Shown piece after piece: positions 40,968 to 50,100 of a DNA stretch of 64,000 bases. The position numbers were made by a program, and so were the translations under genes. The notes beneath the pieces are model-generated. The model saw only the letters and a list, made by a program, of their open reading frames with translations, searched no databases and was not told the origin of the DNA. Positions within the stretch are counted from its first letter, which is position 1, and each line of letters starts with the position of its first letter. The stretch comes from Eledone cirrhosa. Lineage: Eukaryota. Location of the stretch: the NCBI GenBank assembly GCA_964016885.1, contig OZ024758.1, positions 25,606,001 through 25,670,000 of the forward strand, written 5' to 3'.

Positions 40968-41779
40968 ATAATAATAAATATGAAGACTAAAATCCGAAGA
41001 GGGCTTGATAAGGATAATATCATCATCATCATTCTGAGGTTACTGTAGAAAAGAAACAGGAGAATGTATTCATCATCATCATCATCATCATCATTTTACG
41101 TCTGCTTTTCCCTGCTTGCAAGGGTGGGACGGGAACTGATTCTGGCTTGATTTCTACAGCTGGATGCCCTTCCTAACACCAACCTCATTTACAGTGAGTG
41201 CTGGGTGCTTTTTTGCTGTGGCACCTCCACGACCACTTTGCAGTGGAATGATAGGGACCCCAGTCCCTATCATCTCATTTCTACAGCTGAGTAAACTGGA
41301 GCAATGTGAAATAAAGTGTCTTGCTCAAGGAAACAACACATCACCCGGTCTGAGAATTGAACTCACAACCTTTCGATTGCAAGGCCAATACTCTAACCAC
41401 TAACCACTATATATATATATGTAAAAGTTCTATTTAAATTGTTGGGATACAACAAGCAAATATTTTTATAACTGATATAAAGCACTCAAGAAATAATTGG
41501 AGTAAAAATACGATATTAACAAATGGAAACCCAACGGCTTATTTAAAAATATCCAATACTAACTTACCTAATAGTATAATTAAAGATATAACTCCACATC
41601 CGGGAGCTTCCAACAGTAATGGTTGCATTCTTTAAGGGTATGTCAATATTTATTTATAAAACTGCTCTATATTATATTTTATCTGTTGAAAGCACACCAT
41701 AATTTAACTTGGTGTCCTTGAAATATGTATAATGAAATAAATATGGGTTTATAAATATAGTTTCCATTTGTTAATATCG

Positions 41780-41811
<32 letters not shown>

Positions 41812-42286
41812 AACGGAAAAAATGAAACGATATTTCATTTCCCACTCTTAGTACGGCTGTTACTTAAATATAAGTATGTACACGTACATACATATATGTA
41901 TACCGACGTACAGTAGTATGTATATATATATATATACATACATGCACACATATATATATGCACGATATGCAAATTGGGCTACTCAGCCGTTAATATGCAT
42001 AAGGTAAGTATATACGTTCAACAATCTGGCAGGAAGGTATACGTTGCTGACGATAGCTAACAAGCTTGAAACTAGTACAGCGTTCCTTTGTCGGTGTTGA
42101 ACAAACGAGCAACGGTGGTTGCTAGACACTACGGCTTAATATGGGATGTTTGTTTACAAACACACCGAGCATTATAATAAATATTCGGTGAATCCATACG
42201 TGCATATATATATGTGTGCATGTATGTATATATATATATACATACTACTGTACGTCGGTATACATATATGTATGTACGTGTACATA

Positions 42287-42333
<47 letters not shown>

Positions 42334-45031: not shown

Positions 45032-45086
<55 letters not shown>

Positions 45087-47122
45087 GTAGAAACTGGAGG
45101 GTAATATGCGTAGTAGTAGATCACTCAATCCAGGGGTGGCAGAAACTCGAGTTCGGGAACTACGTATAGGTACCCGTTTACGTGTGTTGTATCCAAGCGA
45201 ATAACTATGTGTATACACTGGGAGTGTATTTTACCTATTGAGTACGCTGAGATGCAACCGGTCCTAGCATTGATACCTATGCTGGGTCCGTCAACTTATT
45301 ATTATTATATATATATGGTGGATTGGCAGTATCGGTAGAGGGTCGGACACCATGCTTTCCAGCATAGTTACGTCCCTTTACGATCTGAGTTCAAATCCCG
45401 CCGAGGTTGACTTTGCCTTTCATCCTTACGGGGTCGATAAAATAAAGTACCAGTAATGCACTGGGTATTTGCTGGCCTTGTGCCTAAAGTAGAAACAATT
45501 ATTATATATATATGGAGGCACATGACTTAGTGGTTAGAGCATTGGCCTTGCAATCGAAAGGTTGTGAGTTCAATTCTCAGACTGGGTGATGTGTTGTTTC
45601 CTTGAGCAGGGCACTTTATTTCACATTGCTCCAGTTTACTCAGCTGTAGAAATGAGATGATAGGGACTGGGGTCCATATCATTCCACTGCAAAGTGGTCG
45701 TGGAGGTGCCACGGCAAAAGAACACCCAGCACTCACTGTAAATGAGGTTGGTGTTAGGAAGGGCATCCAGCTGTAGAAATCAAGCCAGAATCAGTTCCCA
45801 TCCCACCCTTGCAAGCAGGGAAAAAGCGGACGTAAAATGAAATGATGATGATATATAAACACACACAATATGTAGAATTCCGATGTAAATCTGGAGGTGA
45901 CCACTGTGAATACATTAGTAGAGTATAGGCATATTCATTTTATTATAGAAATTACTTCTACAGGATTAGAACTGTCTCATTGGTAGGAAATCATCCTGAT
46001 GATTATGTATGTTATATATATATATATATATATATATGAAAAAAAGGAAAAGAATGTGTTCATCGTAGTGTTAAAAAATTTTTGATTTAATTTTATAATA
46101 TTATAATATTATACAATTAAATCAAAAAATTTTTAATACTTCAAGTGAAGTCATTCTTTTCCTTTTTTTCAAATATACCTAACTGTACCAAGGATCTCAC
46201 ACATTTTCCAATACAGTGAAGGAGGCAGAGGATTTGATGCAGGAGGTTGAGACTGTGTCGATGAGTGTGGGGCTGAGAATGAATGAGACTAAAACAAAAT
46301 ATCTGGTAGAGAATGTTGAGAAGCCAGAGGGGATCACTAATGTAGGCGGGAAGCCGCTAGAATTGGTTGAGGACTTCCTGTATTTGGGAGCAAAGATTGG
46401 GAATACGGAAGATGATGTGGGTGAGAAGAAGAACAAAGCCTGGGCAGCGTGCCACAGCTTGAGATCGATGTGGGAGTCGGACCTTCGTAAAGACCTGAAA
46501 ATCCGCCTCTTCATTGCTTCTGTGCTGCTGTACGGGTCTGAGACTTGGACACTGACCAAGAAACTCACTCAGATGGTGGATAGGTGCTACACGAGAATGC
46601 CGAGGATGGCTCTGAACATTAATCAATATACACTGAGGATGAAAAACTCAGAGCTGTATGGGAGCCTCCCAAAAGTCAGCTCAAAAGTGACACAGAGGAG
46701 ACTGAGGTTAGCTGGACATGCTCACCGAATCCAGAGTTGACATTGCACTCAGTGCTCCTGTGGGAGCCCCTACATGGACACACTGGAAGAGGAAGACCAA
46801 GGTTAACGTATGTTGATGCCCTAAGGACAAACACTGGTCTCTTGGAGATGCAGGACATGGCAGCGATAATGAGGGACAGAGACCTGCCCTAGAATAGAAT
46901 ATATATATATATATATATATATAGTAATAATAATAAATTTGAAGACTAAAATCCAAAGAGGGCTCGATAAGGATAAATATATATCAAATATATAAGAACC
47001 CTAGAGCAAATATTTATTAAAATAACAGATTAAAGTTTAAGCAAAGAATCGCTGCTTTCACCCTTAATGGGATCCCGTTAAGGGTGAAAGCAGCGATTCT
47101 TTGCTTAAACTTTAATCTGTTA

Positions 47123-47182
<60 letters not shown>

Positions 47183-50100
47183 CACACACATATATATATA
47201 TCCCACATGTGTAGGTTGAAACTAGCATGGGAAGGAAGGTAGTAAAAGCAGAAGTTGTTCTAGTCTTAGAGAAGTCATCTCTCCATGAAATAAATGTCTA
47301 TCTTCTCTACTAATATATTGAGTACCTTATTGAACTGGTCATATTTTCCATTCCTCTTCAAAAAACCCATTCTTCATATGTATACATATACTGACACACA
47401 CAAACATACATATACATACACACATAATATACCACATGCTCATACAATAAAATATATTAGAAATATAATTAATTTTATATATACACACCACACTGTGTAG
47501 ATTAATAGTAAAGAAAGCTTACATACACACAGACACACGTATATTAACCTTTTAGCATTTACATTACTCTATATTTACTATTGTATTTTCACGGTAAAGG
47601 GTTTTATCTCACATAAATATCTCAAATAATATCGAACCTATGACATTTTGATATTACCTTTACTTCCCTCTGAAGAAGAGATATTATCTCAAAACTTAAG
47701 GAAATTTAAGGTAAAAGACTAATTGTCAGCGATATCTTTTGTATTTGTATTTCATCATCATCGTTTAACGTCCATCTTCTACGCTTGTATGAGTTTGGAC
47801 AGGCTTTTTATATTCTATATCCATACATGCATTGTTCTGGCCTTCTAGCTCCAAACGTTTATACCTCATTACGCAATGCTTCAAGTAAACTACAATTTCC
47901 TTCATTTTGATATTATTTATTTTGAGAACAATACCTTAACATCAGTATGAGTGGCTAGTTATTGTCAGTTTGAGCAGAAAGAGGTGAGATAATTCTGGCC
48001 AGTTTAAATGCTAAAGGGTTAAACATACATACACTCACATATTTACAATGTATACTTGATATTTCTCACAAAACTTGTATGTAAATGTTACTTATACATA
48101 ATATATATATATGCCATATTATCTGACACTGATATTTTATAAGAGACATTTTAATCAACAGAATAATCACAAAGTTGTTTAACCCTTTAGCATTTACATT
48201 ACTCTATATATATACTATTGAATTTTTGAGGTAAAGGCTTTATCTCACATAATTATCTCACATTATCGAATCCACGAGATTTTGATATTATATATTTTGA
48301 GAACAATACATTAACATAAGTATGAACAGCCGGTTAAAGCCAGTTTGAACAGAAAGAAGTGAAAGAATTCTGGCCGGATATGGCTGGTTTAAATGAATCA
48401 ATGGCCAACTAAGGATGACTAGCTGTAGGAAGTATAGCTTCAATGGCAGTGCCCCAGCATGGCCTCAGACTGTCGGCTGGCAGACATAACGTGGTAATAG
48501 AGTAATTTTATATAAATTCAATGCAACTATTCAATAATTCTTCTTATTTTTGTCACAAGGCCAGCAATTACCCCAGTACATTACTGGTGCTTTATTTTAT
48601 CAACCCAGTAAGGATGAAAGGCAGTAAAGCTAACCCTGGCAAGATTTGAACTCAGAACGTAAGGGGCCATAACTCTATGCTGCAAAGCATGGTGTCTGAT
48701 GCTCTACCGACTCTGCCAATCCACCAACCTTTAGTCAATAATTGTTTCTACTTTTGGCACAAGGCCAGCAATTACTCCAGTGCATTACTGGTACTTTATT
48801 TTATTGACCCCCGTAACGATGAAAGGCAAAGTTAACTTCAGTGGGATTTGAACTCAGAACATAAAGGGCCATGACTCTATGCTGCATAGCATAGTGTCTG
48901 ATGCTTTACTGACTCTGCCAATCCAATAATGTTTACTAGTTTAGTTAATTGAGTAGCATAAAGTAATAACCAGATGGGTATAACATGTGATTAAATAATC
49001 TTAAGTTCTAATGCTGTTTGCTAAAAGATTATTATTTTGAAAACTAAGATCATTGACTTTTATCAACTTTGCTGACCTTTTCTTTGTTATTAATTAGAAG
49101 GTAGAGATGCCATTAAAGAAATAAATCTGTTAAACTTAGTGAAAAGGCCAATGTCATGAAAAGAACAACTATTTGTCTTTGGAGAGCTTTATGAACTTTC
49201 TTAAGTAGCTAGAACAATTTAGTCAACCTCATGGATAAGACACTTAAAATGGTTTTTTTTAGAGAAAGAAAGATAACTGAAGGTTTAAAATCCAGAAGAA
49301 CCACAAGTGAAGTGGACACAAACAGATCTGACAGGTTCAATCTTTTGATAAGATCAACCCACTAAAGTGTTTAGTTTAACATTCTTTTTTTTAAATACTT
49401 TTTAAAATGTTAACACATTGTGTAGTTTAGAATCTTAGATCAAAGTTTGCAGCAATATCATCATTGATCAGTTGAAGCCATTCCCTTATCATAATCATCA
49501 TCATCATCATTTTACGTCCGCTTTTCCCTGCTTGCAAGGCTTGCACGGGTCCTATTCAGCACATCATCTCTCCACTTGTCACGGTCCTTCGTCATCTCCT
49601 CGGTGAGTTTCAGCGGTCAGAGGTCTGCTCTCACTACCTCCGCCCATGTTTTACGTGGTCTACCTCTACTGCATCTTCCTTCTACAGGGATTTCTTGGCA
49701 CTTCTTTACCATGCACATCACATGTCCATACCATCTCAGCCTTCTCTCCTGCACACAACTTATCCCTCTTATACCCAGTTTCTTTCTCAACTCGTCTATG
49801 CTTGGTCGTTCACACACATTGACATTGCACATCCAACGGAGCATACTTGCTTCTTTTCTCTCCAGCCGTCGAATTATCCTCTGCAGTTGCTGCCCATGTC
49901 TCACTACCATGCAGCAACGTGCATCTCTCACAGGCATCATATAACCGGCCTTCCGTATGCAGGGAGAAACCCTTATGCATATGAAATAGGATACTTCTGA
50001 GGTTTAGATGTGTGTATGATTTATGCATGCATGATCTCATAACTCCTGAAAGAGTCGTAAGGGTGGTGTATTGATATATAGCGCTTCTAGGGCAGAATCG

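Follow-up and report, generated by a model that had tools for sequence, protein, structure and literature searches.

Truncated Penelope-like insertions and a retrozyme-like element with predicted hammerheads in an NR2C intron of Eledone cirrhosa

Hammerhead motifs in the NR2C intron

The window, a 64-kb stretch of the Eledone cirrhosa genome, contains a minus-strand NR2C gene, and tblastn placed exons of this gene at 53236-53096 and 40396-40130, on either side of the region studied here (Table 1). The initial annotation had described a cluster of elements within a single NR2C intron, with the plus strand antisense to the gene, and these exons bear that out. It had listed five short elements, named here by core position: A (42047), B (43435), C (41683), D (43889), and E (47670). 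All five belong to high-copy families (1,437–2,728 first-look candidates each), though two more stubs, F and G, had been missed.

Table 1. Features of the NR2C intron region, in window coordinates (HHR, hammerhead; '.', no single strand assigned)
Feature	Position	Strand	Evidence
NR2C (TR2/TR4-type orphan nuclear receptor) exon, downstream of intron	40130..40396	-	tblastn with octopus NR2C proteins P0001/P0002, 94% identity
Element C, Hydra-clade PLE truncated to its 3' end and flanked on either side by (TA)n; plus arm (41528-41779) has the HHR and no tail, minus arm (about 41530-41420) has the tail	41420..41779	.	98% identity to 3' end of ORF-bearing copies L076-L078; 91-nt tail
HHR of C: helices I and II of 8 and 9 bp, helix III palindromic; this copy has a mutation at base four of the CUGANGA box	41675..41739	+	family core intact; 4 two-sided pairs among 38 unique copies
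Element A, ORF-less retrozyme-like family (monomer 424-468 nt) inserted as a fold-back; plus arm has the HHR and no tail, minus arm (41812-about 41960) has the tail and no HHR	41812..42293	.	
HHR of A: core intact at 42047, helix I of 6 bp, helix II of 4 bp with a U-U mismatch at its base, helix III a 6-nt palindrome; cleavage predicted after 42077	42041..42083	+	type I descriptor, stem covariation
mariner (Mos1-type HTH) DNA transposon, internally deleted, TIRs; inserted at TA between A and B, separate from HHR elements	42331..43210	+	PF17906 match
Element B, truncated 3' end of second Hydra-clade PLE; 11-nt inverted stub of tail end 43226-43236, then tail-less HHR arm	43226..43616	+	95-96% identity to 3' end of ORF-bearing copies L071-L074
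HHR of B: core 43435 intact, helix I of 9 bp, extended helix II of 101 nt, helix III an 8-nt palindrome; cleavage predicted after 43554	43426..43563	+	descriptor; fold z = -5.35
Element D, 3' end of likely Neptune-like PLE in fold-back form; 92% identity between arms, tail at about 44990-45039 (plus), one HHR-like core on each strand	43636..45039	.	
HHR-like motif of D, NR2C sense strand; core starts 43860; intact 6-bp helix II	43815..43872	-	fold z = -2.49
HHR-like motif of D; core 43889; helix II damaged by two substitutions	43876..43932	+	fold z = +0.26
Remnant of a Tc1/mariner-type DNA transposon that entered D at a TA	43933..44799	+	weak PF13358 DDE_3 match, E = 0.005; TIRs
Element F, fold-back PLE-like stub; degenerate HHR core 45997, NR2C sense strand	45871..46007	-	
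Element G, fold-back plus tail; arms meet inside HHR-like core; tail-bearing arm on minus	46924..47129	.	
TTAA-flanked MITE with terminal inverted repeats, presumably piggyBac-like, host of E; second copy near 48180	47544..48022	.	
Element E, single arm with tail, 11-bp target duplication, and a SINE-end fragment inserted in it; HHR minimal, with helix I of 3 bp and helix II of 6 bp; core at 47670 with a mutated GAAA box	47657..47904	+	
NR2C exon, upstream of intron	53096..53236	-	tblastn, 91% identity

The only strict matches to a type I hammerhead descriptor in the window are the cores at 42047 (helix I from 42041), 43435 (helix I from 43426), and 41683, the last with one mutated base; 40 shuffles gave a mean of at most 0.15. 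Descriptor motifs numbered 67, against 2–4 in shuffled sequence – an approximately 20-fold excess. The type I features (CUGANGA and GAAA boxes, a UH site, and helices I–III in type I order) are intact in the window copies of A and B and in the family of C; helix I is imperfect in D, and the E hammerhead has a helix I of 3 bp and a core that is broken in the window copy. The 41683 copy had been described as degenerate, and one of its catalytic bases is indeed mutated; the GAAA box at 47670, also a plus-strand core, is mutated too. Across family copies cores are conserved while stems covary, with two-sided changes at four stem pairs in C, three in D, two in A, one in B, and none in helix II of E, all counted among related copies with kinship ignored.

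An alternative is that these motifs are chance look-alikes in AT-rich, palindromic MITE-like repeats. Consistent with this, the motifs of A, E, and the plus strand of D fold no better than shuffled sequence (z = -0.14, -1.12, and +0.26, respectively), and those of D and E (43889 and 47670) fail the strict descriptor, though both lie within hammerhead-like families. Against it stand the excess over shuffles, the conserved cores with covarying stems, and the location of motifs in the 3' UTRs of Penelope-like elements (PLEs), downstream of GIY-YIG ORFs. We consider chance matching scarcely tenable and already largely refuted, and take the motifs, as first proposed, to be real hammerhead motifs. 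An Rfam scan returned no hammerhead family among the 120 matches listed at E values up to 10 – those in the region being below-threshold hairpin miRNA look-alikes – and Rfam thus appears blind to these minimal hammerheads.

The motifs resemble known PLE type I hammerheads in their short helix I, extra base before helix II, and palindromic helix III. Those hammerheads occur mostly as single copies from truncated PLEs, some in opposite-strand pairs 100–700 bp apart, as here. We find no essential difference, apart from a very long helix II in B that is at the unusual end of the range.

ORF-bearing families and an ORF-less family

Longer copies of families B, C, and D continue, colinearly and at 93–99% identity, into RT and/or GIY-YIG ORFs. 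Among copies picked for long shared upstream sequence, ORF pieces lie upstream of the hammerhead end in 4/4 from B and 3/4 from C. The B and C ORFs encode Hydra motifs (RWR, DKT, a CxCX5C linker, CxxC and CxH) and lack CCHH; B has the full set, and in C the RWK region falls outside the ORF pieces translated. Pfam returned no RT or GIY-YIG match for five B/C ORF pieces, and the assignment rests on motifs. Judged from sequence, B and C are 5'-truncated 3' ends of ORF-bearing PLEs of the Hydra clade.

Published work on C-terminal EN+ Hydra-clade PLEs, which include Hydra-1_Obim of Octopus bimaculoides (Craig et al. 2021, PMC8557442), describes the same features as in B and C: a single ORF with RT and C-terminal GIY-YIG, RW(R/K), DKT, CxCX5C, CxxC/CxH, and no CCHH, as well as a 3'-end hammerhead, a (TA)n target, an inverted truncated arm, and a tail. 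The tails of B (~130 nt) and C (~91 nt) exceed the published 30–40 bp, and B differs in its 101-nt helix II, with a diverged partial repeat upstream of it. The suggestion that such families might be uncatalogued in cephalopods was overstated, as a hammerhead-bearing, (TA)n-targeting Hydra PLE is known from O. bimaculoides (PMC8557442 supplement). By eye comparison of protein and hammerhead with that published element, the families here are nevertheless other families.

The D family ORF encodes a C-terminal EN with a CX4CX2C linker and Cys/Cys/His/His residues (L082, L094), with the hammerhead downstream. RT thumb and EN were recovered, frameshifted, in 2/8 loci translated, the RT core lying outside the flanks examined. 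D is likely a 5'-truncated 3' end of a Neptune-like PLE, from Neptune or perhaps Nematis. The description of Neptune-type PLEs (PMC8557442) gives a CX2-5CxxC linker and a CCHH endonuclease, and D matches in linker, CCHH-type residues, downstream hammerhead, and (TA)n target, though D is known from RT thumb and EN alone. The linked ORFs rule out B, C, and D as non-LTR retrozymes.

Family A is organized differently from B, C, and D. Its monomers (424–468 nt, GC 34–39%, one type I hammerhead each) occur head to tail in arrays of at least seven, and the 36-nt hammerhead motif has 1,830 exact copies genome-wide. In 30 loci with flanks to 1.5 kb, we found no ATG ORF longer than 60 amino acids and no common flanking ORF. 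PLE ORFs beside four copies (L015, L024, L025, L027) were considered as partners and, because their distance and order vary, judged to be neighbours. The loci examined yielded neither an autonomous partner nor a sequence link to a given PLE pLTR. Of the five listed elements, the one at 42047 is the only clear ORF-less retrozyme by its sequence, and as such would be expected to give rise to linear and circular monomer RNA in abundance. Reports on metazoan non-LTR retrozymes (Cervera and de la Pena 2020, PMC7229834; Li, Clavereau, Pollet, bioRxiv 10.64898/2026.07.22.740005) likewise describe short ORF-less tandem monomers with one type I hammerhead per unit and GC under 50%, and the axolotl HHR_Amex2 described there has the same U-U mismatch at the base of helix II. 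Family A differs in that its copies bear the two-end footprint of PLEs, and it is known here from genome copies alone. Literature searches found no published octopus retrozyme.

Family E, in 15 search loci and two control loci, showed no linked ORF, no tandem copies, and no shared sequence beyond ~60 nt upstream – only short fold-back or single copies – and the loci examined contained no autonomous partner. The initial proposal of several non-autonomous, ORF-less RNA families therefore holds for A and fails for B, C, and D.

Insertion ends and a candidate mechanism

An inverted 5'-truncated arm, a tail on one arm, and a (TA)n target are found together in A, C, D, and G in the window, and as a stub in B. 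This combination is the published PLE footprint, and together with the linked PLE ORFs it upholds the earlier view of PLE-type insertions with type I hammerheads. The architecture then described – inverted arms, a one-sided extension, and mostly (TA)n targets – fits A, C, and D; B retains only an 11-nt inverted stub, and E has one arm and an 11-bp duplication within a TTAA MITE in place of (TA)n. In family E the footprint is seen in other copies.

The ends of A insertions are fixed, at monomer position 274–277 in 19/23 insertions and at 221 in 11/23. The end maps, read with work on an anole Poseidon element (Frangieh et al. 2024, PMC11167929), suggest a mechanism. The PLE GIY-YIG endonuclease would nick both strands of a (TA)n tract, and RT would start at two fixed internal RNA sites, one per strand, giving two facing arms distinguished by the tail, which measures 56 nt in A, ~91 nt in C, and ~130 nt in B. 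Which arm extends as far as the hammerhead would depend on where synthesis happened, at random, to stop early. Poseidon likewise has two fixed ends separated by the tail, extension of both strands, and ends away from the hammerhead cut site; that work was done in vitro, whereas the footprint here is read from genomic ends and extends to an ORF-less family. According to the same study, hammerhead cleavage is dispensable for insertion.

Genomic junctions gave no sign of cleavage-defined 5' ends in A. Raw junction counts relative to the cut site were 32 (-33..-30), 43 (-12..-9), 68 (-2..+2), 154 (+4..+7), 72 (+10..+13), 14 (+19..+23), and 34 (+44..+48), which resemble a 5–10-fold peak. The junction anchors, however, differ in copy number (9,829, 14,252, and 2,536 for the three of seven that were counted). 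Per 1,000 copies, junctions numbered 4.4 upstream, about 5–7 at the cut site (denominator bracketed), 10.8 at +4..+7, and 5.5 at +19..+23. No peak at the predicted cut site survives this correction, and we reject the raw counts as evidence of cleavage. By hand count, 21/58 cut-site junctions keep the base before the cut, after removal of 10 indel look-alikes. The 2–2.5-fold excess that remains at +4..+7 fits pausing at helix I. Comparison with four of 18 RNA runs gave only ~35-nt simple-repeat matches and has no bearing on expression.

Density and orientation of the insertions

The cluster holds six library-detected hammerhead loci (seven including family B) in 6.5 kb, against a control mean of 0.57 and control maxima of three in 239 non-overlapping bins and four in sliding bins (1.6 Mb); counts in control bins resemble a Poisson distribution. 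Outside the cluster, the library has no match to the NR2C gene body within the window. TA runs also peak at the cluster, at 13 per 6.5 kb against 0–8 elsewhere in the window. Within about 1.5 kb of sampled PLE copies, hammerhead loci of other families are 2.2 times denser, and the flanks of these copies are 2.6 times richer in TA runs. Consistent with this, the new TA flanks of an insertion would likely draw further PLE and mariner insertions.

TA content alone may be insufficient to explain the density (12 TA runs against 6.5), and the 2.2-fold enrichment near PLE copies falls well short of the density observed in the cluster (Poisson P about 3e-5 per bin). The patch could instead be a special hot spot, through a chromatin or sequence feature or as a block copied from a repeat-dense region. 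The count above the control maximum and an excess of about 10-fold, against 2.2-fold near other PLEs, speak for this. The window was, however, chosen for this density, the TA runs peak at the same place, the families are of different clades and ages, and stacked stubs of several families are common at other loci examined. A hot spot beyond TA-seeded nesting is therefore unlikely.

The initial annotation had further held that the best-preserved cores lie antisense to NR2C, as expected if sense copies would cut its pre-mRNA. A and B are indeed intact on the plus strand, but the best D core (43860) is on the sense strand, a further degenerate core (45997) is also on minus, and the antisense cores of C and E are broken. 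Five of the seven full-length core positions in the intron are on plus (p=0.45), and the listed single-strand elements all share one strand (4/4, two-sided p=0.125). Dynein heavy-chain gene bodies totalling 1.6 Mb contained 55 sense and 57 antisense intact cores (p=0.92). The sense fraction (55/112, CI 0.40–0.59) is compatible with up to about 35% depletion of sense copies, and the control genes are probably mostly axonemal and tissue-restricted, as the one checked is, rather than widely expressed. Loci with cores on one strand (27 vs 30) and same-palindrome same-strand pairs (9 vs 8) were likewise even, and sense cores were not more often broken (26/81 vs 38/95 antisense, Fisher p=0.35). Because motifs pointed both ways equally in control genes, the antisense pointing in the NR2C intron is likely chance, and the inferred selection against sense-strand cleavage finds no support.

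The larger model, in which several non-autonomous hammerhead RNA families are kept antisense by such selection, gains from the ORF-less A, the absence of an ORF in the E loci, and a report that retrozymes are depleted in Xenopus introns (bioRxiv 10.64898/2026.07.22.740005, whose supplementary data span 35 genomes: 31 from vertebrates, three from insects, and one from a coral). With B, C, and D being PLE 3' ends and the strand counts even, we regard it as very unlikely. Minimal PLE hammerheads have low in vitro activity (PMC4209133), and the same preprint reports that 1/9 retrozyme dimers cut. We propose that minimal hammerheads with a palindromic helix III would cut poorly as single copies, so that a lone sense copy would cost the pre-mRNA little and strand bias would not build up.

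In a variant of this model, a lone hammerhead would be neutral, whereas hammerheads able to dimerize, chiefly those in tandem A arrays (over 14,000 monomers), would cleave RNA during transcription and be selected out of the sense strand of NR2C and other broadly expressed genes. The ~2-fold junction excess 4–7 nt downstream of the cut site would then be a genomic trace of ribozyme folding or cutting in copied RNA. We consider this quite unlikely; if true, octopus introns would carry a strand-specific ribozyme filter.

The region very probably accumulated through separate insertions of truncated Penelope-type elements into a TA-rich stretch of the NR2C intron. By this reading, three are 3' remnants of ORF-bearing elements, two from the Hydra clade and one likely of Neptune type; one is a copy of an ORF-less retrozyme that Penelope enzymes likely mobilised, and the others are smaller stubs. 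The hammerheads predicted in them are likely randomly oriented with respect to the host gene. The even strand split is a useful negative: in the introns tested, PLE hammerheads avoid neither strand, in agreement with their weak, dimer-dependent activity. These findings leave current views unchanged and extend known classes by octopus families, of which two are Hydra, one is Neptune-like, and one is a retrozyme. Family A, one large young retrozyme, is well suited to studying how animal retrozymes move, being ORF-less and yet carrying a two-start-site PLE footprint in thousands of near-identical copies.

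Hammerhead motifs in an NR2C intron

The window derives from a 3.0-Gb assembly and contains a gene whose last exon matches octopus orphan nuclear receptor NR2C proteins at 96%. Using tblastn, we mapped the coding exons of NR2C to the minus strand, from window position 63714 to 21524, with the element-rich patch at 41400–47900 between the exons at 53236–53096 and 40396–40130. Because the coding exons are on the minus strand, the plus strand is antisense to the NR2C pre-mRNA, as the initial annotation had stated. A U4 snRNA-like sequence (Rfam score 59.1, gathering score 46) also lies antisense within an NR2C intron; it has a degenerate 3' end, adjoins a TA run and is probably a retroposed pseudogene.

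Elements of the patch and other repeats in the window
Feature	Position	Core (strand)	Tail-bearing arm	Remark
C	41420–41779	41683 (+)	minus	
A	41812–42293	42047 (+)	minus	
B	43226–43616	43435 (+)	minus	11-nt stub
D	43636–45039	43889 (+), 43860 (−)	plus	
F	45871–46007	45997 (−)	minus	further stub in patch
G	46924–47129		minus	further stub in patch
E	47657–47904	47670 (+)	plus	
U4-like sequence	34792–34912 (+)			
Stubs of tail-bearing families	40575–40650, 40965–41030, 45085–45300			at TA runs
ORF fragment	46183–46880 (+)			185 aa
79-bp tandem repeat	25809–26363			
Minisatellites (examples)	633–1743, 12490–14568, 57287–57901, 58769–60358			

A strict type I hammerhead descriptor applied to the whole window identified intact cores in A and B and a core with one base mutated in C, exceeding the mean of at most 0.15 matches in 40 dinucleotide shuffles; Rfam listed no hammerhead match in the window. 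The plus-strand motifs of D and E fail this descriptor. The helix III of D recurs in a family whose helix I is perfect in our control DNA (1,597 kb inside 13 of 19 dynein heavy-chain genes, 8 on the plus strand and 5 on the minus, the genes being found by their N- and C-terminal domains). The E motif combines a 3-bp helix I and an extra base with a 6-bp helix II closed by a G-C pair, and its helix III, 4 nt long, forms a palindrome in 9 of 27 copies. This is the minimal hammerhead form of PMC4209133, and the copy in the window has a mutated GAAA box. Consistent with the annotation's hammerhead reading, stems covary in A (two pairs with two-sided changes), C (four) and D (three, in helix II, across 20 unique copies), and barely in B (one), as counted on related copies without phylogenetic correction. 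First-look candidates number 1,437–2,728 per family genome-wide for A–E, with 40 scored for each family.

Penelope-like and retrozyme-like families

B matches the 3' end of longer copies at 95–96% identity; four of these, picked because they share a long upstream stretch, all have pieces of reverse transcriptase (RT) and/or GIY-YIG ORFs upstream. C matches a second family's 3' end at 98% identity, and three of four long copies of that family carry ORF pieces. Pfam did not recognize the B and C pieces; their proteins have DKT, CxCX5C, and CxxC and CxH flanking E and N, lack CCHH and, in B, include RWR. These motifs are the Hydra signature for Penelope-like elements (PLEs) set out in PMC8557442 (DKT, CxCX5C, CxxC/CxH, no CCHH), by which we assign B and C as putative Hydra-type PLE 3' ends. 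In two of the eight loci translated, D continues into the thumb region of an RT and a C-terminal endonuclease that has CCHH residues and a CX4CX2C linker; it appears to be a Neptune-like PLE. In four copies of family B (L071–L074), we observed a partial repeat, 83–87% identical, that lies ~235 nt before the full B hammerhead on its upstream side and ends just past a first CUGAAGA half-core.

A forms head-to-tail arrays of at least seven monomers of 424–468 nt (GC 34–39%) with no ATG ORF longer than 60 amino acids, and no ORF accompanied it consistently across 30 loci with 1.5-kb flanks. Its 36-nt hammerhead occurs 1,830 times in the genome as an exact match, and an 18-mer taken from the wider family 14,252 times. 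This array form fits the definition of a non-LTR retrozyme as given in PMC7229834, to which the sequence of A would assign it. The initial annotation had described ORF-less, non-autonomous, retrozyme-like elements – a reading that holds for the tandem monomers of A and fails for B, C and D, which continue into PLE ORF pieces in longer copies. Our literature searches turned up no paper about retrozymes of octopus, so family A has probably not been described before.

The 17 loci of E showed no tandem copies and no ORF. The patch also holds two mariner remnants and one TTAA-flanked MITE. The fold of G (in the window and in copies L141, L149 and L187) is type I-like, its helix III being long and paired; most copies read CAG in place of the core CUG, and the family is very abundant (31 BLAST matches in 1.6 Mb). 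Three more stubs, from repeat families that bear tails, lie between the listed elements or immediately beyond them; the one at 45085–45300 opens with the tail of a repeat family that also occurs in control loci and has GAAA and an 8-nt palindrome without an upstream core. By eye, the ORF fragment resembles the terminal part of a LINE reverse transcriptase; it has no Pfam match, and its 3' end recurs as the 79-bp tandem repeat. Many young minisatellites (34–135-bp periods) occur in the window, at least some derived from SINE or LINE pieces.

Insertion ends and clustering

Among 23 distinct insertions of A, an arm ends at monomer position 274–277 in 19 and an arm ends at 221 in 11, and inner ends are scattered. 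Two fixed ends also occur in B (~130 nt apart) and C (~91 nt apart). This layout corresponds to the inverted arm plus tail described in PMC8557442 and, as read here from genomic ends, agrees with the pair of internal RT start sites of an anole PLE that extends both target strands in vitro (PMC11167929). The octopus elements may have inserted by this anole-type route, from two internal RT starts with both target strands extended, and A could have been mobilized by a borrowed PLE protein. The extent of copying of each arm would then decide which arm carries the hammerhead, and the plus-strand cores therefore do not mean one shared element polarity.

Seven raw genome-wide counts suggested a peak of A junctions near the predicted cut site. 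Dividing three of the seven windows by anchor copy number gave 4.4 junctions per 1,000 copies at −12 to −9, 10.8 at +4 to +7 and 5.5 at +19 to +23, with about 5–7 at the cut site itself. Junction counts along the monomer thus gave no evidence of cut-defined ends in A, in agreement with the dispensability of hammerhead cleavage reported in PMC11167929. The 2–2.5-fold per-copy excess just downstream of the cut (+4 to +7), relative to two control windows, might, at a guess, reflect pausing at helix I.

Across 239 control bins of 6.5 kb, 136, 74, 25 and 4 bins held zero, one, two and three loci, respectively (mean 0.57; sliding-bin maximum 4); by the same counting method the patch holds six. The rest of the NR2C gene body in the window gave no full-core match. 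In the flanks of 88 sampled PLE copies, other families are in 2.2-fold excess and TA runs are 2.6 times more frequent. TA-seeded nesting is the likely cause of the patch's density, explaining only part of the 10-fold excess, and the apparent excess is further raised by the window having been chosen as a dense one.

Orientation relative to host genes

The initial annotation proposed that selection had kept cores antisense to the host gene. A descriptor scan of the control genes identified 32 sense and 35 antisense motifs (shuffles, 2–4). A library search, extended to families D, E, F and G, found 55 sense and 57 antisense intact cores (p=0.92, CI 0.40–0.59) in a set that under-represents long tandem arrays and – because its dyneins are probably mostly axonemal (the one checked is) – strongly and broadly expressed genes. 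All cores gave 81 sense and 95 antisense (p=0.33), and loci intact on a single strand 27 and 30, with 22 two-strand loci. Broken cores were not in excess on the sense strand of these genes (Fisher p=0.35), and pairs with the same palindrome on a single strand of one gene numbered 9 sense and 8 antisense. Two dynein heavy-chain genes, at 6705821–6811056 of the window's contig (G000:C19:6705821-6811056), lie tail to tail with identical domain scores, an arrangement that suggests either an artefact of assembly or an inverted duplication of recent date.

The NR2C intron itself has five antisense and two sense full cores (p=0.45). Of the two D cores the sense one folds better (z −2.49 versus +0.26 for the antisense core), and the broken cores are those of antisense C and E. 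Literature searches on hammerhead strand bias found nothing relevant; a preprint reports that retrozymes are depleted from Xenopus introns (bioRxiv 10.64898/2026.07.22.740005), strand being absent from the sections covered.

PLE hammerheads, dimer-type palindromes, (TA)n targeting, the fold-back footprint and the retrozyme–PLE link are already in print. So is an octopus Hydra element with a hammerhead (PMC8557442), contrary to the suggestion that such elements might be uncatalogued in cephalopods, and a repeat annotation of O. vulgaris gives 31 PLE families as recently active, ribozymes being unmentioned in the sections covered (PMC13282606). Strand selection on hammerheads is unsupported, and the families of this patch add to kinds already known.
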